The notes below the pieces were generated by a model that worked only from the letters and a program-made list of their open reading frames with translations, had not been told where the DNA came from and searched no databases. Source: an uncultured Actinomycetota bacterium (GTDB taxonomy: Bacteria > Actinomycetota > Actinomycetes > JAHEKZ01). Taken from it: a stretch of 64,000 bases of DNA. The stretch covers positions 321,864 through 385,863 of the forward strand of contig CAWGPZ010000006.1 in assembly GCA_963824605.1 (NCBI GenBank), given 5' to 3'. A program made the translations under genes and the position numbers. Shown one piece after another: positions 9,315-22,990 of this stretch; the first letter of the stretch is position 1; each line of letters begins with the position of its first letter.

Positions 9315-11074
9315 TCAGTCGGCGATGGTGCAGATGCTGGCACCCGCGCTGAGCGTCTGGCCGATCTCGGCCGACAGCGCGGTGATCGTGCCCGCCTTGT
9401 GCGCATTCAGCGGTTGCTCCATCTTCATCGCCTCGAGCACGACGACAAGCTCGCCCGCCTCGACCCGCTGGCCCTCCTCGACGGCGATCTTCACGATCGT
9501 GCCCTGCATGGGGCTGGCGAGGTCGTCGCCGGACGCGGCGGCCCCTGCGCCTCGCTTGGCTGAGCGGCGCGGAGCCGCCTTGCCACCTGAACCAGCTGCG
9601 GGAGCGCCTGCGCTGAACCCGGCCGGCAGGGTGACTTCGATGCGCTTGCCGCCGACCTCGACCGTGAGTGACTCGCGTTCGGCAGCCTCGGCAGCGACTT
9701 CTCCGCCGGCGAACGGTTCGATGGTGTTCGTGAACTCGGTCTCGATCCACCGCGTGTGCACAGCGAAGGCTGCTCGGGATCGTCGGGGGCGAACGCCGGG
9801 TCGCGCATGACGGCGCGGTGGAACGGAAGAGCGGTTGCCATGCCGTCGACCACGAACTCGTCGAGCGCACGCCGCGCTCGCTGAACCGCTTGTTGGCGCG
9901 TCGAGCCGGTCACGATCAGCTTGGCGAGCAGCGAGTCGAAGTTCTGCCCGATCACCGACCCGCGCTCGACGCCGGCATCGAGGCGTACTCCAGGACCAGA
10001 CGGCGGCTGCCAGACCGTCACCGGGCCGGGCGCGGGAAGGAAGCCTCGACCGGGGTCCTCGCCGTTGATGCGGAACTCGAAGGAGTGACCTCGGATGGCT
10101 GGGTCGTCGTACCCCAGCTCCTCGCCGTCGGCGATGCGGAACATCTCGCGCACCAGGTCGATGCCGGTCACCTCTTCGCTGACCGGGTGCTCGACCTGCA
10201 GGCGGGTGTTCACCTCGAGGAAGGAGATCGTGCCGTCTTGGCCGACGAGGAACTCACACGTGCCCGCGCCGACGTACCCTGCCTCGCGCAGGATGGCTTT
10301 GGACGCGCGATAGAGCTCGGCGTTCTGCTCATCCGACAGAAACGGAGCCGGCGCCTCCTCGACCAGCTTCTGGTGACGGCGCTGCAGTGAGCAGTCGCGG
10401 GTCGAGACGACGACGACGTTGCCGTGCTGGTCGGCAAGGCACTGGGTCTCGACGTGGCGCGGACGGTCGAGGTAGCGCTCGACGAAGCACTCGCCGCGGC
10501 CGAACGCGGTAACGGCCTCGCGAACGGCTGAGTCGTAGAGCTCGGGGATCTCCTCCAGTGTCGTGGCAACCTTGAGGCCTCGTCCGCCGCCGCCGAAGGC
10601 CGCCTTGATCGCAATGGGAAGCCCGTGCTCCTTCGCGAAGGTCACGACTTCGTCGGACCCAGCGACCGGGTCGGCGGTGCCTGCCACCTGGGGTGCGTTC
10701 ACCGCCTGCGCGATGTGGCGTGCCTGCACCTTGTCGCCGAGCGATCTGATCGCAGCGGGGGGAGGGCCGATCCAGATGAGCCCGGCGTCCATGACGGCTT
10801 GAGCGAAGTCGGCGTTCTCGGACAGGAAGCCGTAGCCGGGGTGCACGGCATCAGCACCGGACCGCGCAGCGATGTCGAGGACCTTGCCCATGTCGAGGTA
10901 GCTGGAGGCGGGACTGTCGCCGTTCAGGCTGAACGCCTCGTCGGCCGCTCGCGCATGCGGAGCATCTCGATCTGAGTCTGCATAGACGGCAACCGAGGCG
11001 ATTCCGGCGTCACGGCACGCCCTTGCCACTCGGACAGCGATCTCGCCACGGTTGGCGATCAGGACCTTGCGCAC
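9315..11074 (-). CDS. accA: Acyl-CoA carboxylase alpha subunit (biotin carboxylase plus BCCP domain), with an apparent frameshift between the domains near 9770.
   Basis: The biotin carboxylase domain ([16 protein letters not shown]...) sits in the 9491..11074 frame. The BCCP domain with the EAMKME biotinylation motif sits in the 9315..9761 frame. Junction: ...[12 protein letters not shown] / [12 protein letters not shown]. Confidence 0.8.
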
Positions 11075-11782: not shown

Positions 11783-12016
11783 TCAACGAGGCAGTGTCGA
11801 CGCACGCCACGACCCCGGACCGGCACCAAGCAGTGGGCGCACCTGGCGCGAGCGTGAGGCCCAGAGCGAGCGCTTGGGTCGCGAACTGGGTGGCGAACCG
11901 GCCGCCCGCCGTGAGAGCACGGCGACGACCGCAGCGATCTCATCGGGGTCGGGGTTGCCCGAGACGATCCGCAGCGTCGGCTGGTCGGCAAGTCGGGTCA
12001 CGGTTGGCTCGGTCAC
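11783..12016 (-). CDS. accE: Acyl-CoA carboxylase epsilon subunit-like small protein (77 aa).
   Basis: GTG start overlaps the accD TGA (GTGA) at 12013-12016. [21 protein letters not shown] resembles the AccE5 core. It lies in a different frame of ORF 11783..12454. Confidence 0.45.
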
Positions 12017-13647
12017 AGCGGGATGTTTCCGTGCTTCTTCGGCGGCCGGTTGGCCCGCTTGGTGCGCAGCATCCGCAGCGCTCGCATCACGTTGACACGC
12101 GTCGCCGATGGCTCGATGACGGCATCGATGTAGCCGCGTTCGGCGGCGAGGTACGGGTTGAGCAGCGTGTCCTCGTAGCTCTCGATGAGCTGGGCCCTGG
12201 TGGCGTCGAGGTCGCCCCGCTCGGTCGCGGCCACGATCTCCTTGCGGTGCAAGATGTTGACGGCGCCCTGTGCTCCCATGACGGCGATCTGGGCGGTGGG
12301 CCAGGCGAGGTTGATGTCGGCACCGAGATGCTTCGATCCCATGACGTCGTACGCGCCGCCGTACGCCTTGCGGGTGATGATGGTGACGAGCGGAACGGTC
12401 GCTTCGGCGTAGGCGTAGATGAGTTTGGCTCCGCGCCGAATGATGCCGCCCCACTCCTGGTCGGCACCGGGAAGGAAGCCGGGAACGTCGACGAGCGTGA
12501 GCACCGGGACGTTGAAGGCGTCGCAGGTGCGGACGAACCGCGCGGCCTTCTCGGACGCGTCGATGTCGAGGGTGCCGGCGAACTGCATGGGCTGGTTGGC
12601 CACGACACCGATCGAACGACCCTCCACGCGGCCGAAGCCGGTGAGGATGTTGGGGGCGAAGAGCGGCTGCACCTCGAGGAAGTCGCCCTCGTCGACGATC
12701 GACTCGATCACCCGGTGCATGTCGTAGGGCTGGTTCGCGGAGTCGGGAATCAGCTCGTCGAGTGCGAGGTCGTCAGGGGCCACCTCGTCGACGACGACAG
12801 CGTCGTACGCAGGTGGCTCGTCGAGGTTGTTGCTCGGCAGGAACGAGAGAAGCTGCTGCGTCAGCTCGAGGGCCTCTTGCTCACTGGCCGCCATGAAGTG
12901 CGCGACGCCGCTCTTGGCCTGGTGTGACCGCGCTCCGCCGAGCTCCTCGAACTCGACGTCCTCTCCGGTCACCGTCTTGATGACTTCGGGCCCGGTGATG
13001 AACATGTGCGAGGTCTTGTCGACCATGACGATGAAGTCGGTGATGGCTGGTGAGTAGACGGCGCCCCCGGCGCACGGGCCCATGATCAGCGAGATCTGTG
13101 GGATCACTCCGGAGGCCTGCACGTTGCGGTAGAAGATCTCGCCGTACTGCGCCAGTGAGGCGACGCCCTCTTGGATCCGCGCCCCACCGGAGTCGTTGAT
13201 CCCCACGATGGGCGCACCGGTCTTGAGGGCCATGTCCATGACCTTGACGATCTTCTCGCCGAAGACTTCACCGAGGGATCCCCCGAAGACGGTGAAATCT
13301 TGGGCAAATACGAATACTTGCCGACCGTCGACGGTGCCGTAGCCGGTCACGACCCCGTCGCCGTAGGGCCGCTTGTCCTGAAGACCGAAGTTGTGGGAAC
13401 GGTGCCGGGCCAGCTCGTCGAGCTCGATGAAGGAACCATCGTCGAGGAAGGCCTCGACGCGTTCACGAGCGGTCAGCTTGCCGCGCTTGTGCTGGGCCTC
13501 TACGGCACGTTCTGAGCCGGCGTGAACGGCTTCGTCGACCTTGTGGCGAAGCTGAGCGAGTTTGCCGGCAGTGGTGTGGAGATCGACCTCCTGCTGCCCC
13601 GTCAGCGGTTCAGGTGCCGAGTCACTGGGTGGTGCGGCCATGCTCAC
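12013..13647 (-). CDS. accD: Acyl-CoA carboxylase carboxyltransferase beta subunit (AccD5/PccB-like).
   Basis: 544-aa ORF with carboxyltransferase N and C domains and a conserved [16 protein letters not shown] region. Confidence 0.85.
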
Positions 13648-13779
13648 TCCGGCTCACGAGTCGATGTCGGTCAGGTGGCGGCCAGCGTAGCGACGCGGCC
13701 CACCCGTGGGGGAGTGGGTGCTCAAGTAGGTTCAGCGGTCTGGTCGCGATGCCGATGTCGTAGACGGGAGAATGGGCGG

Positions 13780-15450
13780 ATGGTGGGGCAGGTGGGCGAC
13801 GATGCCGCTCGCGGCGTCGCGCGACAATCACGCGCGCGCAGCGAGGCACGACTGCGTGCGCTCAGCGATGTCGGTCGAGCCGGAGTCGGCCTGCCCAAGC
13901 AGCAGGCGACCAGGCACATCGTGCTGGCCGCCATGCGAGCCAGCGAGGCCGACTCGGCTTCGCTGGGAGTGTGGATGCCTGAGCGCCAGGTCTTGCGGGC
14001 TGTGCTCAACGTGGGTGACCTCGCCCCCTGGGAGGACGAGGAGCCCGAGGACGAGGTCTACGAGGCAGACCAGAGCACCTGGCTGGCAGGTATGGCGGAC
14101 GGGGCCCTTGGAGCAGTTCTCAGCCTCGAGAACCCCGCGATCAGCGACGACGACCGCCTGTATCTCCATGAGCTCGGGAAGGAGAGCTCGATCAGCGTTC
14201 CTCTGCTCTACGCCGGTGAGTGGTGGGGCGAGCTGTTCGTTGCCAGGAGCGCCGCCCGCCCTTCCTTCGTCGAGGCGGACCTCGACTGGGTCTCGGCCGT
14301 GGCGGCCCAGGTGAGTGCCGCGCTCGAAAGCGTCGATCACGCTGCCAGTGTCGAGCAGCTCGCCCAGACCGACTCGATGACTGGCCTTGCCAACCGCCGC
14401 GCACTCGACCGCTGGCTCGACGACGCCATGGTTCAGTGGCGCGATCATCACGTGCCGATCGGGCTGGCGGTGATCGACCTCAACGGGTTGAAGCGGATCA
14501 ACGATGACCAGGGCCACGATGCGGGCGACCGGGTGCTCCGGCAGCTCGCGCACATCCTGTTCGACGCGTCCCGGGGATTTCAGCACTCCATGACGGCCCG
14601 CCTGGGCGGAGACGAGTTCTGCGTCGCGGTGAGCGGCCAGGACGCCGATGAGCTGGTGGACGTAGCAGCTGTGGCGTGTCAGTCCGGTTGGGACCTTCTT
14701 CCGCACGGACTCGCGTGCGGCGTGGTGGTGACCAGCGACGCCGTTGGCCCCGTCGAGCAACCAGCTCGTCTGCTGCGACTGGCCGACGCCGCCCAGTATC
14801 GCGCCAAGCGACTGCATTCCCGGATCCCCGTCGTCTCCGGCCTGCCGTTGCCTGAAGAGCTTGCCGTGTCGCTGACCGACGAGGAGGAGGAGGAGGCGGT
14901 GGTCTCCGACCGGCGCCTGTTTCGCGGGCGTGACGTCGCCAGTCTGGGGCAGCTCACCGATGGGGCGCTCAGAGCGCTCGACCAGGCCAACGAGGAGGCA
15001 CCCCGCAGCAGACTGGGGATGGTCGCCGACCTCTTCACCCATCACGTCGACGGACTCGGGTGGTGGCTGTCGCTGCAGACACGGGGGGCCGATTCGCTGC
15101 GCACGGTCGACTTCTCGCTCTACCGGCGTCCGCCCGGACTGGAGGCCGAGGAGGTGGGTATCGAGGCCAGCGGTGAGTTCGCTCTCGTCAACTATCCGGA
15201 GACCAGGCAGGCGTTGGCTGGGGGCGGCTACTTCGTGACGACCAGCGATATCACGGCAGATCCGGCCGAGCTCGCCATCCTGGACGGCATGGGGGCCACG
15301 GCAGTGGTAGCAGCCGGCGGCATCGACGAGTACGGGGACCGGTGGTTGATCGAGGTCTTCATGGATTCGCTCAGCTCATCGCCCCAAGAGCTTGCCGGCG
15401 TCCTTCGACTGATCGTGTTGGCCGCCCTGCATCCGGTGAGGGCCGACTAG
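13780..15450 (+). CDS. Diguanylate cyclase with GAF-like N-terminal domain, GGDEF domain and a ~190-aa C-terminal domain (paralogue 1).
   Basis: TDSMTGLANRRALD, VIDLNGLKRINDDQGHDAGDRVL and RLGGDEFCVAV motifs. Start trimmed to ATG 13780 (GGGAG SD 11 nt upstream), because the upstream part of the ORF overlaps accD. Confidence 0.75.
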   Translation: MVGQVGDDAARGVARQSRARSEARLRALSDVGRAGVGLPKQQATRHIVLAAMRASEADSASLGVWMPERQVLRAVLNVGDLAPWEDEEPEDEVYEADQSTWLAGMADGALGAVLSLENPAISDDDRLYLHELGKESSISVPLLYAGEWWGELFVARSAARPSFVEADLDWVSAVAAQVSAALESVDHAASVEQLAQTDSMTGLANRRALDRWLDDAMVQWRDHHVPIGLAVIDLNGLKRINDDQGHDAGDRVLRQLAHILFDASRGFQHSMTARLGGDEFCVAVSGQDADELVDVAAVACQSGWDLLPHGLACGVVVTSDAVGPVEQPARLLRLADAAQYRAKRLHSRIPVVSGLPLPEELAVSLTDEEEEEAVVSDRRLFRGRDVASLGQLTDGALRALDQANEEAPRSRLGMVADLFTHHVDGLGWWLSLQTRGADSLRTVDFSLYRRPPGLEAEEVGIEASGEFALVNYPETRQALAGGGYFVTTSDITADPAELAILDGMGATAVVAAGGIDEYGDRWLIEVFMDSLSSSPQELAGVLRLIVLAALHPVRAD

Positions 15451-15585
15451 CGGCCTCGAACCGCGGTCACAGATCCCCAGGAGGTGCAGGGGTGTGCGGC
15501 ATCAGGCCCTCAGCATGGCTGGTCCTGATCACCTGAGGCACCGGTGAGGTCCCTGAGCCCCGGTGGGCTCCTTGGGCTGGCTTCA

Positions 15586-15628
15586 ATCGTGACGGCCCGG
15601 GCCCCTATATCGTGACGGTCCGGGCCCC
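15586..15628 (+). promoter_or_regulatory. Tandem direct repeat, ATCGTGACGG(C/T)CCGGGCCCC twice, lying 55 bp upstream of GGDEF paralogue 2.
   Basis: Two 20-nt copies at 15586-15605 and 15609-15628 with one mismatch. They sit in the 234-bp intergenic region. Confidence 0.3.
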
Positions 15629-15683
15629 GCTGCCCTCAAGGAGTACCGACCGTGGGGCCGATAGAACCGGGAAGGAGGCATTG

Positions 15684-17336
15684 ATGACCGTCGGCCATGA
15701 GCCACGCCTTGGCCCGGCGCGCCGCGAGCATGTCGCGACGCGTCTCGGCGCACTGGCCGAAATCGCCAGGGCCGCATGGGCCGGCAGCCAGCAGGATCTG
15801 CTCCGAGCAGCTGCCACCTCGGCGGCTGAGGCTCTCGGGGCTTCGTCGGTGTCCATCTCGCGATGGGACGCCGAGGTCGGCCAGCTACAGGTGCTGCTGA
15901 ACCAAGGCCATCTGGGCCCGCACGAAGTGGCCGAACCGATCGATGAGATCTACACCGAGGATATTTCTGAGCATCTCAGCGTCATGGCGGAGAAGCTGGC
16001 CGGATGGTCGGCCAACGTCGATGACGTGCAACCGGACGACGTTGATCTCGCGCTCCTGAGGGTGCTGGACAAGCACTGCGCGATTGGCGCCCCCATTCCC
16101 ATGGACGGGCTGGTCTGGGGCGAGCTCTTCGTGACACGAACCGCTGATCAACCCTGCTTTGAGGACGAAGATGTTGATCTCGCGCTCGTGGTCGCCGCGC
16201 AGATTGGCGCCGCCTTGGCGACCGCGGAGCACCTCGACAACGTCGATCGGATGGCCCACACCGACCAGCTGACCGGTATCGGCAACCGTCGAGCTGTCGA
16301 CGAGAGCCTCGACATCGCCTTCAGCCGCCACCGATCCGATGGAGTATCAGTCGGCCTCGTCGTGTGTGACCTCAACGGACTCAAACGGATCAACGACGAC
16401 CAGGGCCATGAAGCCGGTGACCGCGCCCTCGTTCGCTTCGCGACGATGCTCAGCGCCGTGGCCGCGACTATGCCGGGAGCGATAGCCGCGCGGCTTGGGG
16501 GCGACGAGTTCTGCATCGTTGCCTCTGGGGTGTCTGCCGATGACGTCGTCGAAGCCGCTCGCGAGCTGTGCCGCATGGTTCTGCGCTCTCCCCTGGAGGG
16601 GGTGTCGTGCGGTGTCGCCTCCACCGAGGACGACGTCGGTGATGTAGAAACCGCCGGCCGGCTGTTCCGGCTCGCAGATGCGGCGCAGTACCGCGCCAAA
16701 CGCAGTCGCGCCACCGTCCCGATCGTGGCGGGCCGTGGGGTGCCCGCGAGCCTGTCCACGCAGCACGGTGCGGAGGCGGCCATCGCCGCCGGGGAGCGCC
16801 GGATGTTCCGCGGGCGCGATCTGTCGGACACGGCCCGGCTGCTCCGCGCAGGGGTGTCGGCGCTGGACGATGCGCGAACTCTGGGAGTTGAGGAGCGCCT
16901 TGTTCTGGTGGCTGAGCGAGTTGCCGAGCAGTGCAATCCCCTGGGGTGGTGGCTCTCACGGGCCGACATGGGCAAAGGGGTTGTCCGAACGGCCCGTCGC
17001 GCGATCTACCGGGATCCTTCCCGGCCCGGCGAGGAGATCACCTCTGACATCGGCAACGAGTACGCCTTGTCCGACTACCCACCGACAGCCCATGCCCTTG
17101 CTGGCCACGTGGTGTCGCTCCAGGCGAGTGATCCCAATACCGACCCCGCTGAGCTGGCAATGCTGGACGGCATCGGCGCGACCACCATGCTGATGGCCGG
17201 TATCACCGACCCCAAGGGGCAGGCATGGTTGTTGGAGATCATCGGTGACGCGATGAGCGCGCCGATGGTCGACTACGAGCTGTCTCTGCGCGCCCTGATG
17301 GGACTCGCGGCCATCGAGGCGAACGCGAGTAGGTGA
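15684..17336 (+). CDS. Diguanylate cyclase with GAF-like N-terminal domain, GGDEF domain and C-terminal domain (paralogue 2).
   Basis: TDQLTGIGNRRAVD, VCDLNGLKRINDDQGHEAGDRAL and RLGGDEFCIVA motifs. Collinear with paralogue 1. ATG 15684 is preceded by a GGAAGGAGG SD. Confidence 0.75.
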   Translation: MTVGHEPRLGPARREHVATRLGALAEIARAAWAGSQQDLLRAAATSAAEALGASSVSISRWDAEVGQLQVLLNQGHLGPHEVAEPIDEIYTEDISEHLSVMAEKLAGWSANVDDVQPDDVDLALLRVLDKHCAIGAPIPMDGLVWGELFVTRTADQPCFEDEDVDLALVVAAQIGAALATAEHLDNVDRMAHTDQLTGIGNRRAVDESLDIAFSRHRSDGVSVGLVVCDLNGLKRINDDQGHEAGDRALVRFATMLSAVAATMPGAIAARLGGDEFCIVASGVSADDVVEAARELCRMVLRSPLEGVSCGVASTEDDVGDVETAGRLFRLADAAQYRAKRSRATVPIVAGRGVPASLSTQHGAEAAIAAGERRMFRGRDLSDTARLLRAGVSALDDARTLGVEERLVLVAERVAEQCNPLGWWLSRADMGKGVVRTARRAIYRDPSRPGEEITSDIGNEYALSDYPPTAHALAGHVVSLQASDPNTDPAELAMLDGIGATTMLMAGITDPKGQAWLLEIIGDAMSAPMVDYELSLRALMGLAAIEANASR

Positions 17337-17396: not shown

Positions 17397-18215
17397 ATGG
17401 CAGCCAGTCGCACACCGGATCGGTCTCCTCGAGTGCCTCTGGACGCCGAGCGGCTGCGCGCGCAGGTGCTGACGCCGGGCAGCCTCTGGTCGGGGTTGAC
17501 CGTTCTTTCCTCCATCGGATCCACCAATGTGGAGATGGCCGATCGTGCGCGTGGTGGCGCGCCCCACGGAGGGGTACTGGTCGCCGAGGAACAGACCGCG
17601 GGACGAGGGCGACGCGACCGGGGCTGGTCCGCTCCCACGTTCTCATCAGCGATGCTGAGCGTCGTGGTGCGGCCCCCACCGCCTTCGTCGCGGTGGGGAT
17701 GGATCCCGCTGCTCACCGGACTGTCGGTGGTCGATGCCGTTGCTGTGCATGGCGTGACGGCCGCCCTCAAGTGGCCGAACGATGTGATGGTGGGTGGTCG
17801 AAAACTGTGCGGAGTGCTCTGCGAAGTCGTACCGACCCCCACGGGCAGTGCGGTGGTCGCTGGGTGGGGAGTGAACGTCGATCAGGAGGCGGGAGAGCTG
17901 CCGGTCGAGGCCGCGACGTCGGTGCTTCTTGCTGGGGGATCCGTCGACCGCTCGGCGCTGGTGGTGGAGATGCTTGCTGCATGGGAGCGGTGGTACCGCC
18001 GATGGGAGCGCGGAGAAGCGGTGGTCTCGGAGACCTACGCCGAGTACTCGAGCACGCTCGGGCAAGCAGTGCGTGCGCACCTGCCCGATGGGGGACAGAT
18101 CGAAGGGCTCGCCTCAGGCATCAGTGACAGCGGGGGTTTGGTGATCGACGTCGATGGACGCGAACGCGAGGTGGCCGCCGCCGATGTCGTTCACCTTCGC
18201 CCCGCATCTCCCTGA
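17397..18215 (+). CDS. birA: Biotin--[acetyl-CoA-carboxylase] ligase.
   Basis: GRGRRDRGW and KWPNDVMVGGRKLCGVL motifs. No N-terminal HTH. Neighbours the acc genes. Confidence 0.8.
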   Translation: MAASRTPDRSPRVPLDAERLRAQVLTPGSLWSGLTVLSSIGSTNVEMADRARGGAPHGGVLVAEEQTAGRGRRDRGWSAPTFSSAMLSVVVRPPPPSSRWGWIPLLTGLSVVDAVAVHGVTAALKWPNDVMVGGRKLCGVLCEVVPTPTGSAVVAGWGVNVDQEAGELPVEAATSVLLAGGSVDRSALVVEMLAAWERWYRRWERGEAVVSETYAEYSSTLGQAVRAHLPDGGQIEGLASGISDSGGLVIDVDGREREVAAADVVHLRPASP

Positions 18216-18787: not shown

Positions 18788-19459
18788 GTGACCATCGTGC
18801 TGTTGGCTGAAGACGACGACGCCATCAGCGAGCCGCTTTCCCGGGCTTTGCGGCGGCAGGGGTACGACGTCGAGGTCGCTGAAACGGGTGCGGAGGCGTT
18901 GAAAGGAGCGCGGGGCAGTGACCTGCTCCTGCTCGATCTGGGTCTGCCGGGCCTCGATGGGCTCGATGTCTGCCGCGCGCTTCGGGCCGAGGGGTCCCCC
19001 ATCCCGGTCCTGATGCTGACTGCCCGCACGTCCGAGATCGACGCAATCGTCGGTCTCGATGCGGGGGCCGACGACTACGTGGCCAAACCGTTCCGCACCG
19101 CTGAGCTGATGGCGCGCATCCGAGCGTTGCTGAGGCGTGGTCAGGGTGAGTCGGAGGTTCTCTACGGTCAAGACCTGCGCATCGACGTGGGGGCGCGACA
19201 GGTCTGGCAAGGAGAGCGTGCGGTGGATCTATCGAGTCGGCAGTTCGAGCTGCTGGCCTACCTGGTGCGCCGACAGGGTGACGTTGTCGGCCGTGAAGAA
19301 CTGATGCGTCGGGTGTGGCAAACCACCTGGATCGGGTCGACCAAGACCGTGGACATGCATGTCTCATGGTTGCGTCGTGCTCTGGGCGATGGTGGCGCCT
19401 CAGCGTCGCGCTACATCGCCACCGTCCGTGGTGTCGGCTTCCGTTTCGAGGAAGGTTGA
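18788..19459 (+). CDS. OmpR-family response regulator.
   Basis: Receiver domain (LLAEDDD...LLLLDLGLPGLDG...MLTAR) plus winged-helix output (TVRGVGFRF). Confidence 0.85.
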   Translation: MTIVLLAEDDDAISEPLSRALRRQGYDVEVAETGAEALKGARGSDLLLLDLGLPGLDGLDVCRALRAEGSPIPVLMLTARTSEIDAIVGLDAGADDYVAKPFRTAELMARIRALLRRGQGESEVLYGQDLRIDVGARQVWQGERAVDLSSRQFELLAYLVRRQGDVVGREELMRRVWQTTWIGSTKTVDMHVSWLRRALGDGGASASRYIATVRGVGFRFEEG

Positions 19460-19461
19460 TC

Positions 19462-20753
19462 GTGCGGCGTCGATTCCTTCGGGCAACCTTCGGCGTGAGC
19501 GTCTCCATGGTGGTTCTGATGACACTCGCCATGCTCTGGGGGGATTGGACGGGTACCAGGGCGAACATCCAGCGGCAGCTCGGCGCCCAGGCAGACGATG
19601 TCGCAGGCAGCTGCACGAATGGGGGCACACTCAGGGCGAAGTCACCGCTGCCGACCTGCAGCAAATCGTGCCGTTCAATCATCGACTCGAGCTCACCACT
19701 GTCTCCGGCACCGAGCTGGCGGCCGGCAGTTCGACGACGACGGGTCCCTCCGTTCGAACGCACGGTCGACGATGTCGGGGTCATGCGCCTGATCGACACG
19801 AGTGGAACGCTTAGCCGAAACCACCTGGTCGCCACAATCACGATCGTCTTGATCGGGCTGGTGCTCGCCGTCGTGGCGGTCGCCGTGTCGATCCGCACGT
19901 CGCGCCGTCTCACCGAGCCCATCAACGAACTTGCGGCACATGCCGATCGGCTCGGATCTGGCGACCTGCGACCGTCCGACGTCCGCTATGGCATCTCTGA
20001 GCTCGACCGGCTTGCCGACTCGATGGACGCTTCGGTCGTTCGGGTAGCGGCGCTGCTGGCCGAGGAGCGCAGGGTGTCGATCGACGCGTCCCACCAGCTG
20101 AAGACCCCCTTGACCGCGCTGTCGCTACGCCTTGGAGGAACTGGCCGAGTGGCCAGATGACGGCGCCGTTCGAGCGGAGGCGCGCAAGGCGCTCGAACAG
20201 GTCGTCCGGCTGTCTGATGTTGTCGACGATCTACTGATCGACCGCCGATCGCCGAATGCCCGACGAGTGGCGATGCCGCTGAACCTGGTCATCGAGCAGC
20301 AGCTGAGCGAGTGGCGTCCGGCCTTCGATGCGGCTCATCGTCAGATTGTCGGCGACGGTGGACGTGCCGCCGACAACGACCGTGGATGCGGGTCCGGTCG
20401 GACAGGTGCTCGCGTCTTTGATCGAGAACAGCCTGCTGCACGGCGGTGGCACGACCACGATCGAGGCGCACCGTCCGCAGTCGGCCACCTGGATCGAGGT
20501 CTACGACGAAGGGGAGGGGGTGCCCGACGACGTGGCGCCTCGGGTGTTCGAGCGAGATGTCAGTGGCACCGGAGGAACCGGGTTGGGTCTTGCCGCGGCC
20601 CAGGACGCCGCCGTGTCAGTCGGAGGCAGGCTTGCGCTCGTCGGTCGCCGCCCCGCCCACTTCCGGTTCTTCCTCGACGGCAGGGAAGACCCAGCGTCGA
20701 TAGGACCAGAAACGAAAGAGAGTGCCGAGGCCGACCCCCACCACGTTGGCTGA
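19462..20753 (+). CDS. Sensor histidine kinase (TM, HAMP, HisKA, HATPase_c). Its reading frame is broken at least twice.
   Basis: GTG 19462 with a GAGGAAGG SD. The H-box SIDASHQLKTPLTALSLRL is in frame 1 (to 20160). LEELAEWPDD...LNLVIEQQLSEWRPAFDAAHRQI is in frame 2. N-box QVLASLIENSLLHGGG and G-box GTGGTGLGLAAAQDAA are in frame 0. Confidence 0.65.
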
Positions 20754-21143
20754 GATGTTGTCGGCCAGTGCAGAGTCGAGTCCGAGGACATAGCGCGAGA
20801 GCGCGAGCGGGACGAGCGTGATGGCCAACCCGATCGCGTTCAGGACGAAGTAGAGCGAGTACTCGCGCCAGAATCCACGTCGGCCCCGGTCCTTCCAGGT
20901 CCATTCGCGGTTCGCCTGGTAGGCGAAGACCGTCGCGACCACTGTCGACACGGTCTTGGCAGTCAGCGGTCTGTCGGCCAGGACCCCGGGGTCTCCGACA
21001 TGCACCAGGACGTTGAACAGTCCGACATCGATGACATAGGCGACGATGCCGACGGCACCGAAGCGGGAGAGTTCGCCTGCTCCGCGTCGTAGCCTGCGCC
21101 CGAAGGCGTTGACGGCCTCCGTCGGCGTCTTCATCGTCATCAC
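20616..21143 (-). CDS. GtrA-family membrane protein (polysaccharide-synthesis associated).
   Basis: 175 aa with four TM helices and an RFWSYRRWVF C-terminal motif. Overlaps the nrtR stop (ATGA). Confidence 0.65.
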   Translation of the reverse strand: MMTMKTPTEAVNAFGRRLRRGAGELSRFGAVGIVAYVIDVGLFNVLVHVGDPGVLADRPLTAKTVSTVVATVFAYQANREWTWKDRGRRGFWREYSLYFVLNAIGLAITLVPLALSRYVLGLDSALADNISANVVGVGLGTLFRFWSYRRWVFPAVEEEPEVGGAATDERKPASD

Positions 21144-21883
21144 CCGGTGAGGGTACGGGGTGGATCGGGTGGGCGAAGGACCGCAAACTGGTCGGTGACC
21201 TCGATCTGCCGTGCTCTGAACCGATACTGAGCGGCCGGGCGCCCTCCTGAACGTCCGGGCGCAGAGAAGGTGCCGGTCTCGACGATCTGCTGCCGGCGCA
21301 ACAGGATGCGCTTCAGGTTGGTGGTGGAGACGTCGTGTCCGAGGGCGGCTTGGTAGACCGCCTGGAGCTCAGAGGCGGTGAACGCAGCTGGCGCCAGGGC
21401 GAAGCCAAGGTTGGTGTAGCAGAGCTTTGCGCGTAGCCGCCGGACGCCGCTCGCAGTGATCGATGAATGGTCGAACGCCATCACGGGGAGCGCATCCACG
21501 CGGTGCCATGCGGCATCGGGGGGGATGACCGAGCGCTCGTCAGCCGGAACGAGTCCGAGGTACGCGGTGGCAAGCACCCGGCCACGCGGAGCCCGCTCGA
21601 GGTCACTGCGGGTCTCGAGCTGTTCGAGGTGTGCGAGATGCCGCACGTCGACCTTCTCGGCGAGCTGATGGGCGATCGACTGACCCAGGGTCTCGCTGTC
21701 GGCCAGCGGGCCGCCGGGCAGCGCCCATGAGCCGGCGGCCGGTCCTCGGTCGTGTTGCCAGAGCAACACGTGCAGCGCGGCGTTCCTGACCTGCAGCACG
21801 ACGGCGAGCACTTCGTGATTGACGCGCCTGCGAGGGGCGGAACCCCCGGCTCCGGTGGTCGCAGCTACGCCCTCGGTTGGCAC
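21140..21883 (-). CDS. nrtR: Nudix-related transcriptional regulator NrtR (Nudix domain plus C-terminal winged-helix domain).
   Basis: 247 aa. Nudix fold in the N-terminal half and a DNA-binding-like C-terminal half. Divergent from the nadABC genes, which is the classical NrtR genomic context. Confidence 0.7.
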
Positions 21884-21921
21884 AGTGGGACCTCCTCCAG
21901 GCGTGGTAGCGTGGATCTACG

Positions 21922-21948
21922 AGGTTATGGACTGTCAGACAATAACCT
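21922..21948 (+). promoter_or_regulatory. 27-bp imperfect palindrome AGGTTATGGACTGTCAGACAATAACCT, a candidate NrtR operator.
   Basis: 7-bp perfect arms AGGTTAT/ATAACCT; 21 of 27 positions are self-complementary. Lies in the nrtR-nadA intergenic region, about 60 bp upstream of nadA. Confidence 0.45.
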
Positions 21949-22009
21949 CGGGCTCACGGTAGCAGGGCGCGTGGACCGGTCCCGGGTTTCCAGCTGTTGG
22001 AGGTGCGGC

Positions 22010-22990
22010 GTGGCGGACACGCCTCAGGTCGATCCGGCCTATGCGGAAGAGGTTCGACGCCTCGCGGTTGAGCGCGATGCCCTCATCTTGGCCCACAACT
22101 ATCAGGTGCCCGAGATCCAAGAGGTGGCTCACCACGTCGGCGACTCGCTGCAGCTTGCGCGGTTGGCAGCAGCGAGCACTGCCTCCACGATCATCTTGTG
22201 CGGCGTTCACTTCATGGCCGAGTCGGCCAAGCTGCTTGCACCCGACCGCACCGTCCTGATCCCTGATCTGGGGGCGGGATGCTCGCTGGCCGACACCATC
22301 ACCGCCGATCAGCTGCGCGAGTGGAAGGCCGAGCATCCTGGTGCGGTCGTGGTCTCGTACGTCAACACCTCGGCAGCGGTCAAGGCCGAGACCGATATCT
22401 GCTGCACGTCGTCGAACGCCGTCGACGTCGTCAACTCGATCCCCGCCGATCGCGAGGTTCTCTTCCTGCCCGACCAGTTCCTGGGTGCGCATGTTCAGCG
22501 CGAGACCGGGCGCGCCAACATGCACATCTGGATGGGTGAGTGCCATGTGCACGCGGCGATCAGCGGTGACCAGCTGCTGAAACGGGTTCACGAGCTGCCC
22601 GATGCCGAGCTGCTGATCCACCCCGAGTGTGGGTGCGCCACCTCTGCGCTCTACCTGGCCGGCGAGGGCGTCGTTCCTGAGGCTCGGACACATATCCTGT
22701 CGACCGGCGGCATGCTGACCAAGGCCAGCCAGCTGGGGTCGTCAACCGTCCTGGTCGCCACCGAGACGGGCATGTTGCACCAGCTGCGCAAGGCGAACCC
22801 ACTGGCAGACTTCCAGGCAGTCAACCCCAAGGCTGACTGCAAGTACATGAAGATGATCACCCCGGAGAAGCTTGTGCGGTCCCTCCGCGAGAACGTCTTC
22901 GAGGTGACGGTCGACCCTGATGTTGCTGCTCGTGCACGGCGATCGGTCGAGCGCATGGTAGAGCTCGGCGGGGCCCCGGTCCCCGCGTGA
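22010..22990 (+). CDS. nadA: Quinolinate synthase.
   Basis: [23 protein letters not shown] and HPECGC motifs. GTG 22010 is preceded by GGAGG. ORF-track start 21752 would run across the operator. Confidence 0.85.

Follow-up and report, generated by a model that had tools for sequence, protein, structure and literature searches.

We find that two tandem genes of an uncultured Actinomycetota bacterium encode proteins in which a GGDEF domain, the catalytic domain of diguanylate cyclases (DGCs), is flanked by GAF domains on both sides, the C-terminal one having escaped annotation. The genes lie in a stretch of 64,000 nucleotides of contig CAWGPZ010000006.1 (assembly GCA_963824605.1), here called the window, and their products of 556 and 550 amino acids (copies 1 and 2) are 41% identical over 549 columns covering all three parts (BLASTP, E 8e-115). 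The C-terminal ~170 residues are a diverged, cryptic GAF domain and not a new fold, and both copies are, judging by their residues, likely active, GAF-regulated DGCs. What is unusual here is that a family without the I-site, the site of product inhibition, has this second, terminal, unannotated GAF. The tandem arrangement arose by amplification within the lineage, with turnover of copies. Current domain libraries annotate GAF-GGDEF only and miss one third of the protein. Architecturally, the locus is nevertheless no more than a modest variation on a well-known class of enzymes and not a new kind of system, and the general understanding of signalling by cyclic di-GMP (c-di-GMP) is unchanged by it.

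An earlier interpretation made from the letters of the window alone (the sequence-only reading) had described two genes with a shared GAF, GGDEF and ~190-residue third part, with intact catalytic motifs in both, and this description holds throughout. Both plus-strand open reading frames (ORFs) are as described, Pfam matches place GAF at about residues 40 to 183 and GGDEF at about residues 195 to 344 in both copies, and all quoted motifs are present: LNGLKRINDDQGH at residue 234 of copy 1 and 230 of copy 2, GGDEF at 276 and 272, GWWLS at 427 and 421, and DPAELA at 494 and 487.

A cryptic GAF domain at the C terminus

The last ~190 residues of both copies had no Pfam match at curated cut-offs and no NCBIfam match, and five C-terminal sequences failed to match Pfam GAF, GAF_2 or GAF_3 at E <= 10. 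Searches of the PDB sequences, with the single sequence and with a profile, gave only chance-level matches (E 0.2 to 1.2), and a single-sequence word-index search of 5.8 billion proteins returned 4 matches, all of them fragments. To this extent the statement of the sequence-only reading that the domain is of no obvious family was correct. It did not survive the comparison of profiles. When a profile of 105 sequences of the C-terminal domain (CT) was aligned with one of 58 N-terminal GAF domains of the same family (N-GAF), hhalign gave a probability of 98% with an E value of 1.6e-13 over 140 columns. The hidden Markov models (HMMs) of the two domains reciprocally matched each other's sequences. 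The N-GAF HMM matched 65 of the 105 CT sequences (E <= 10 in the 105-sequence database; 22 to 80 bits among the matches listed), and it matched the CT sequence of copy 2 at E 4.7e-07.

The predicted structures agree with this. The full-length AlphaFold2 (AF2) model of copy 1, built from a 64-sequence alignment, had a predicted local distance difference test score (pLDDT) of 91.9 and a predicted template-modelling score (pTM) of 0.79, and in this model the C-terminal domain and the N-GAF have the same order of secondary-structure elements. Modelled alone, the C-terminal domain reached a pLDDT of 92.9, and it displays the antiparallel sheet flanked by helices in the topology of the GAF fold. Foldseek matches of the full-length model were dominated by GGDEF and uninformative on the C terminus.

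The sequence-only reading had taken the C-terminal ~190 residues to be a new ligand-sensing domain unrelated to known families, and the missing Pfam, NCBIfam and PDB matches and the mere 4 word-index matches speak for this; in view of the profile homology to the family's own N-GAF and the reciprocal HMM matches it is refuted so far as computation allows, and we give it next to no credence. That reading had itself named a known domain such as a second GAF as the outcome that would speak against it, and a second GAF is what the profile comparison found. The C-terminal GAF is closest to the N-GAF of the same protein, which suggests an ancient internal duplication. Five of its residues are invariant (W428, P473, E497, E525 and D529), and the linker that precedes it contains an acidic stretch, residues 367-383, where pLDDT is below 50.

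Family contexts and turnover of the array

An exhaustive HMMER search, run with a small CT profile on 1.84 billion cluster representatives, yielded 358 proteins at E <= 1e-3, of which 173 had E <= 1e-10. Among the matches listed, the domain nearly always follows GGDEF: 63 had the architecture GAF-GGDEF-CT, 39 had GGDEF-CT and 1 had GGDEF-GGDEF-CT with the GGDEF match split in two, while 48, mostly short fragments, had CT only and 1 matched none of the three parts. The second, terminal GAF thereby defines a GAF-GGDEF-GAF family, as yet unnamed and metagenome-derived, with no fewer than 358 clusters (50% identity); these several hundred sequence clusters come from genomes and metagenomes. An N-terminal Pfam GAF was matched in 54 of 64 family members. 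A search with the N-GAF profile gave 14 mostly fragmentary proteins, and neither this search nor the word-index one supplied names or any link to the Streptomyces enzyme CdgE discussed below.

The genomic contexts of six more distant family members were read, and the neighbourhoods are Actinomycetes-like. Each of the three longer contexts has birA and/or bPH_2 together with a class III nucleotide cyclase gene (Guanylate_cyc, PF00211) upstream of the family gene; in two of the three, one or two metabolic genes stand in between (HMGL-like; enoyl-CoA hydratase in one locus). In both distant contexts that reach accD5 intact, this gene is directly adjacent and divergent to birA. A minus-strand GtrA gene and purE follow the family gene in one of these two, and the two short contexts share only the downstream GtrA gene. 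In the contexts of P0034, P0021 and P0040 (L019-L023), the PF00211 adenylate/guanylate cyclase gene precedes a single family gene at a distance of one to three genes and directly adjoins it in L022/L023. The family gene and the PF00211 gene are thus a recurrent pairing of two second-messenger synthases in distant relatives. One further member (P0099, L024:4776-7400) is an 874-residue protein of the architecture GAF-HD-GAF-GGDEF-C-terminal GAF, encoded among unrelated genes (CstA, GMC oxidoreductase, aminotransferase).

In high-G+C, Actinomycetes-like genomes the family has long resided in the accD5-birA-purE neighbourhood, usually with a single gene that is preceded by birA, bPH_2 and a gene for adenylate cyclase. 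The lineage of the window differs in that the gene stands between accD5 and birA, is amplified, and has a two-component pair in the place of the adenylate cyclase gene. The view of the sequence-only reading that the cyclase genes are inserted between accD and birA is right for this lineage, accD5 and birA being adjacent in distant relatives, but the gene is not foreign to the site: it was relocated within its own neighbourhood, with birA, bPH_2 and/or the cyclase gene lying upstream of it in the three longer distant contexts.

Nine loci with full-length relatives (L001-L009) emerged from a genome scan, all in metagenome-assembled genomes (MAGs) of uncultured Actinomycetes or Actinomycetota. 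The frame is the same in all nine by tblastn, with accA3-maf-accE-accD5 on one strand and the cyclase array followed by birA, bPH_2 and a response regulator gene on the other (accE in L009 scored under the listing threshold), and the accD5 orthologues in this position are 82-98% identical. The number of cyclase genes varies: one in L009, two in the window, L005 and L007, and three in L003, L004 and L008, with at least two in L002, where the contig ends, and at least one in L006, where it ends inside copy 1. L001, whose proteins are 91% identical to those of the window, has two copies and a remnant. Its spacer between the intact cyclase genes (L001:9663-10228) holds a ~107-codon GGDEF remnant of the middle paralogue, found in L001 only, and is 72-78% identical in nucleotides to intact middle copies.

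A neighbor-joining tree gave three positional clades of orthologues (first, middle and last), each with 100% bootstrap, and the window genes group in the first and last of these. The 233-bp spacer of the window has no trace of a middle copy; only the last ~70 nt of this spacer match, and these match the promoter-proximal region of orthologues. The positional clades, the L001 remnant and the clean window spacer together show that the window array descends from three copies of which the middle one was lost. In the lineage of the window, the gene moved between accD5 and birA, was amplified to three and then lost its middle copy. The sequence-only reading had proposed a lineage-specific duplication, and an amplification is borne out by the one to three copies in nine related MAG loci and by the tree. 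It had also held that a tandem arrangement common across relatives, with one copy degenerate, would count against it; tandem arrays are indeed common among these relatives, and L001 has a degenerate copy.

Compared with five or six orthologues, the ratio of nonsynonymous to synonymous substitution rates (dN/dS) was 0.04-0.23 in the GAF, GGDEF and CT parts of both copies, and 0.10-0.21 in the CT of copy 2, which indicates that both genes, the C-terminal GAF included, are maintained by purifying selection. Between copies 1 and 2, the GGDEF domains are 52% identical and the GAF domains 34% and 39%. That divergence is greater in the sensor than in the catalytic domains suggests that the copies sense different signals, and the arrays of one to three copies in a single uncultured lineage are a natural series for following sensor divergence after duplication.

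Two features of the array surroundings are seen in L007 and L009, the two most divergent of the related loci. Between the array and birA, both have an additional Carboxyl_trans paralogue with 38-39% identity to AccD5 (L007:11542-12981 and L009:9690-11156). L007 also has a further GAF-GGDEF gene after bPH_2 (L007:14775-16250), the position used by the family in distant relatives; its ~150-residue C-terminal tail was not matched by the CT profile and has GAF-like motifs (GFVLSRLESG..., GWLLELLG).

Catalysis and the possible role of the terminal GAF

The GGDEF domains of copies 1 and 2 scored 87.5 and 100.4 bits against PF00990 (cut-off 23.8) and 86.9 and 93.8 bits against TIGR00254 (cut-off 37.4), and the N-terminal GAF domains scored 36 and 27 bits against PF01590 (cut-off 22.4). 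The equivalents of PleD D327, N335 and D344 (D233, N241 and D250) are kept in both copies. In an alignment of 64 family members D233, D250, D278, F280 and R274 are invariant, and N241, G277 and E279 are each found in 62 of the 64. The RxxD I-site, five residues upstream of GGDEF, was found in none of the 64, copy 1 having FQHS and copy 2 MPGA at that position, and the canonical product feedback would thus be missing. Both proteins are acidic and lack hydrophobic segments (maximum of the Kyte-Doolittle 19-residue window 1.4-1.55), indicating that they are cytoplasmic. A 31-residue helix (residues 166-196) joins the N-GAF of copy 1 to the GGDEF domain in the AF2 model, where it corresponds to the usual signalling-helix arrangement, and the best structural neighbours of the full model are sensor-coupled DGCs, namely PadC (5llw/5llx) and the GAF-GGDEF protein DcsBis (4zmu).

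Most likely the locus encodes two paralogous, soluble and catalytically competent DGCs built as GAF, signalling helix, GGDEF, flexible acidic linker and GAF. By analogy with other sensor-GGDEF enzymes, the N-terminal GAF would dimerise and, through the 31-residue helix, set the register in which two GGDEF domains meet, and the paired domains would condense two molecules of GTP to c-di-GMP. Since the RxxD site is lacking, this synthesis would run without the canonical product feedback, and the tethered C-terminal GAF would probably provide a second regulatory input, either by binding a ligand or through contacts with a partner or within the dimer. The lack of a product-inhibition site makes it a concrete question how a DGC may be controlled from both ends.

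Several points weigh against this picture. No invariant residue of the C-terminal GAF matches any known GAF ligand motif that could be compared, and the domain might bind no ligand at all. Its orientation relative to GGDEF is not readable from the model, and the linker is of low confidence. The DGC activity is predicted from the residues, and the two genes may be co-transcribed or have separate promoters. As for the history of the array, the middle clade and the copies of L007 and L009 are weakly placed (52-62% bootstrap), leaving the exact order of duplication uncertain, and L005, with its two copies, may never have had a middle one.

The closest characterised enzyme, compared by description, is CdgE of Streptomyces (sco4931 / sven4602 / ssfg_02707). 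Like the window proteins it is soluble and has an N-terminal GAF followed by GGDEF, the GGDEF glycines being at 271-272 (276 and 272 here), and its activity was demonstrated in vitro for the S. venezuelae and S. ghanaensis enzymes. CdgE is under the control of BldD, MtrA and BldC and has recently been reported to contact RmdB and sigma-WhiG (PMC13232838). In contrast to the window genes, which are in tandem and belong to a family without RxxD, CdgE is single-copy and product-inhibited. It also has no C-terminal GAF: the S. ghanaensis protein, described as GAF-GGDEF only, is 382 residues long, whereas the window proteins, at 556 and 550 residues with the extra GAF, are not two-domain proteins of ~380 residues. 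The gene order in S. coelicolor, where cdgE presumably lies a few genes from pccB (SCO4926), birA and cya (SCO4928), resembles the context of the wider family.

Other known systems are further away. DcsBis (PA2771) of Pseudomonas aeruginosa is likewise a GAF-GGDEF DGC and among the best matches of the full model (E 1.6e-14, 21% identity), but it is proteobacterial, has ~340 residues and no C-terminal domain, and its template-modelling (TM) score normalised by target length is low (0.41), its domain arrangement not being superposable on the full model. In PadC of Idiomarina (5llw/5llx/6et7), a DGC linked to a bacteriophytochrome, the PAS-GAF-PHY bilin photosensor is wholly N-terminal to GGDEF; identity to the window protein is ~10%, and the window family has no PAS or PHY. 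Cph2 of Synechocystis also has a GAF downstream of a GGDEF domain, but this is a bilin-binding cyanobacteriochrome domain that is N-terminal to, and controls, a second GGDEF, whereas in the window proteins the GAF is at the very end, with no second catalytic domain behind it. No description of a GAF-GGDEF-GAF or GGDEF-GAF architecture was found in the literature, and for a C-terminal GAF combined with a DGC only PelD and Cph2 were found. So far as the literature checked goes, the sequence-only reading was thus justified in calling sensor domains on both sides of GGDEF unusual.

It is possible, although we consider it rather unlikely, that the C-terminal GAF is a protein-protein or oligomerisation module and not a small-molecule sensor, serving to form homo- or hetero-oligomers of the tandem paralogues or to dock the cyclase to a local partner. 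Many GAF domains serve as dimerisation modules, the domain sits on a flexible, low-confidence acidic linker, and as many as three co-located paralogues are kept. The protein-protein contacts of CdgE (PMC13232838) would fit as well. However, the 382-residue CdgE makes these contacts without such a domain, the conserved charged and aromatic residues W428, E497, E525 and D529 suit a pocket equally with an interface, and the window offers no nameable partner. More doubtful is a role of the terminal GAF as an allosteric nucleotide sensor that replaces the missing RxxD site by binding c-di-GMP itself or cyclic AMP (cAMP). The cAMP would come from the adenylate cyclase gene found one or two genes before the single-copy family member in the more distant relatives. 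Were the GAF to bind cAMP, this would wire cAMP directly to c-di-GMP synthesis, and under a nucleotide-sensing role the paralogues in the lineage of the window would have split their input among ligands after the loss of the linked cyclase gene.

The activity of both copies that we favour would not apply if one of them had a degenerate, non-catalytic GGDEF, as a receptor or a decaying duplicate, leaving a single functional cyclase. Decay is frequent in tandem duplicates, the middle copy is decayed in L001 and gone from the window, and neighbouring genes in the window have 1-bp indels, but we hold this very improbable: the GGDEF motif, D233, N241 and D250 are present in both copies, neither has a frameshift compared with L001, and the GGDEF dN/dS values across orthologues are in the low range given above for both. 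It is barely conceivable that the GGDEF domains make another cyclic dinucleotide (Hypr-type cyclic GMP-AMP (cGAMP) or cyclic di-AMP), since, although the Hypr GGDEF domains of Geobacter are promiscuous and the Hypr structure 6d9m is among the structural matches, Hypr enzymes have Ser at the PleD D344 position, where all 64 members have Asp (D250), which speaks against synthesis of cGAMP of the Hypr type.

Upstream regions and neighbouring genes

The coordinates of the two genes, their domains and the flanking features are collected in Table 1. The G+C content around the cyclase locus is 0.65-0.70.

Table 1. Features of the cyclase locus, in window coordinates
Feature	Position	Strand	Evidence or remark
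Predicted DGC copy 1, GAF-GGDEF-GAF, 556 aa, ATG start	13780..15450	+	Soluble, isoelectric point (pI) 4.6
Copy 1 N-terminal GAF, residues ~35-165	13882..14274	+	Pfam GAF 36 bits; AF2 secondary structure
Copy 1 GGDEF catalytic domain; GGDEF motif at residues 276-280, nt 14605-14619	14368..14814	+	Pfam, TIGR00254, column conservation
Copy 1 cryptic C-terminal GAF, residues ~386-552	14935..15435	+	
Predicted DGC copy 2, GAF-GGDEF-GAF, 550 aa, ATG start	15684..17336	+	Orthologue of last copy in three-gene arrays
Copy 2 GGDEF domain; GGDEF motif at residues 272-276, nt 16497-16511	16260..16706	+	Pfam 100.4 bits
Copy 2 cryptic C-terminal GAF	16821..17321	+	CT profile match 7.2e-64
Acyl-CoA carboxylase beta gene (AccD5/PccB-like), divergent left neighbour	12013..13647	-	Pfam Carboxyl_trans E 6.8e-205
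birA (biotin-protein ligase), right neighbour	17397..18215	+	Pfam BPL_LplA_LipB + BPL_C
Divergent intergenic region, accD5/copy 1	13648..13779	.	Alignment of seven orthologous regions
Intergenic region, copy 1/copy 2	15451..15683	.	
23-bp-period tandem duplication, two 20-nt copies	15586..15628	+	Window-specific

Across seven loci, CAGCGTAGCGACG (13683-13695), which lies in the divergent region separating accD5 from copy 1, is nearly invariant, with one variable base; in the same region GTTCAG and GCCGAT are partly conserved with invariant core bases. CAGCGTAGCGACG may have a promoter role, which might equally belong to the divergent accD5 promoter. On its minus strand stands TACGCT, which could serve accD5 as a -10 element.

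Upstream of the last copy, CTCAAGG (15635-15641), GCCGATAGAAC (15657-15667) and the Shine-Dalgarno (SD) sequence GGAAGGAGG (15670-15678) are conserved in all six orthologous loci, and a promoter or leader of its own for copy 2 would fit these elements. The direct repeat ATCGTGACGG(C/T)CCGGGCCCC occurs nowhere in the window but at 15586-15605 and 15609-15628 and arose by a recent local duplication: its unit is present once in L001 and absent from the other orthologues. As the repeat is not conserved, it gives no evidence for regulation. The sequence-only reading had combined a strong SD and the repeat into an argument for separate regulation of copy 2, of which the part resting on the SD remains plausible through the conserved elements, while the repeat, although real, does not contribute.

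No terminators were predicted between the cyclase genes or before birA, the only terminator-like sites lying inside birA, and a sigma-70 promoter scan, with a model unsuited to a high-G+C genome, gave nothing. Because Streptomyces cdgE is controlled by BldD, the BldD box (TNACN5GTNA) was looked for; neither upstream region has one, and the 9 matches in the whole window are at chance level (7.4 expected). No Rfam family was found in the whole window.

To the left of the accD5-like gene lie a small accE-like ORF, maf and accA3. The accA3-like biotin carboxylase/biotin carboxyl carrier protein (BCCP) gene (9315-11074, minus strand) is in two frames (9491-11074 and 9315-9761), split by a 1-bp deletion near 9769 compared with L001, where it is in frame; this is either an assembly indel or a pseudogene. 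To the right, birA starts 60 nt past the end of copy 2 and is followed by a gene for a bPH_2 membrane protein and a response regulator gene (18788-19459). The histidine kinase gene after the response regulator (19456-20760, plus strand) is broken across frames by four 1-bp indels compared with L001, near 19608, 19754, 20131 and 20347, pointing to long-read assembly errors in at least one of the two assemblies; the cyclase genes have no 1-bp indels of this kind. Past the two-component pair, a GtrA-like gene (20616-21143) and a NUDIX/NrtR-like regulator gene (21140-21883), both on the minus strand, and a divergent quinolinate synthase-like ORF within 21752-22990 on the plus strand were all called by eye, on the basis of their translations and of a similar context in L026.

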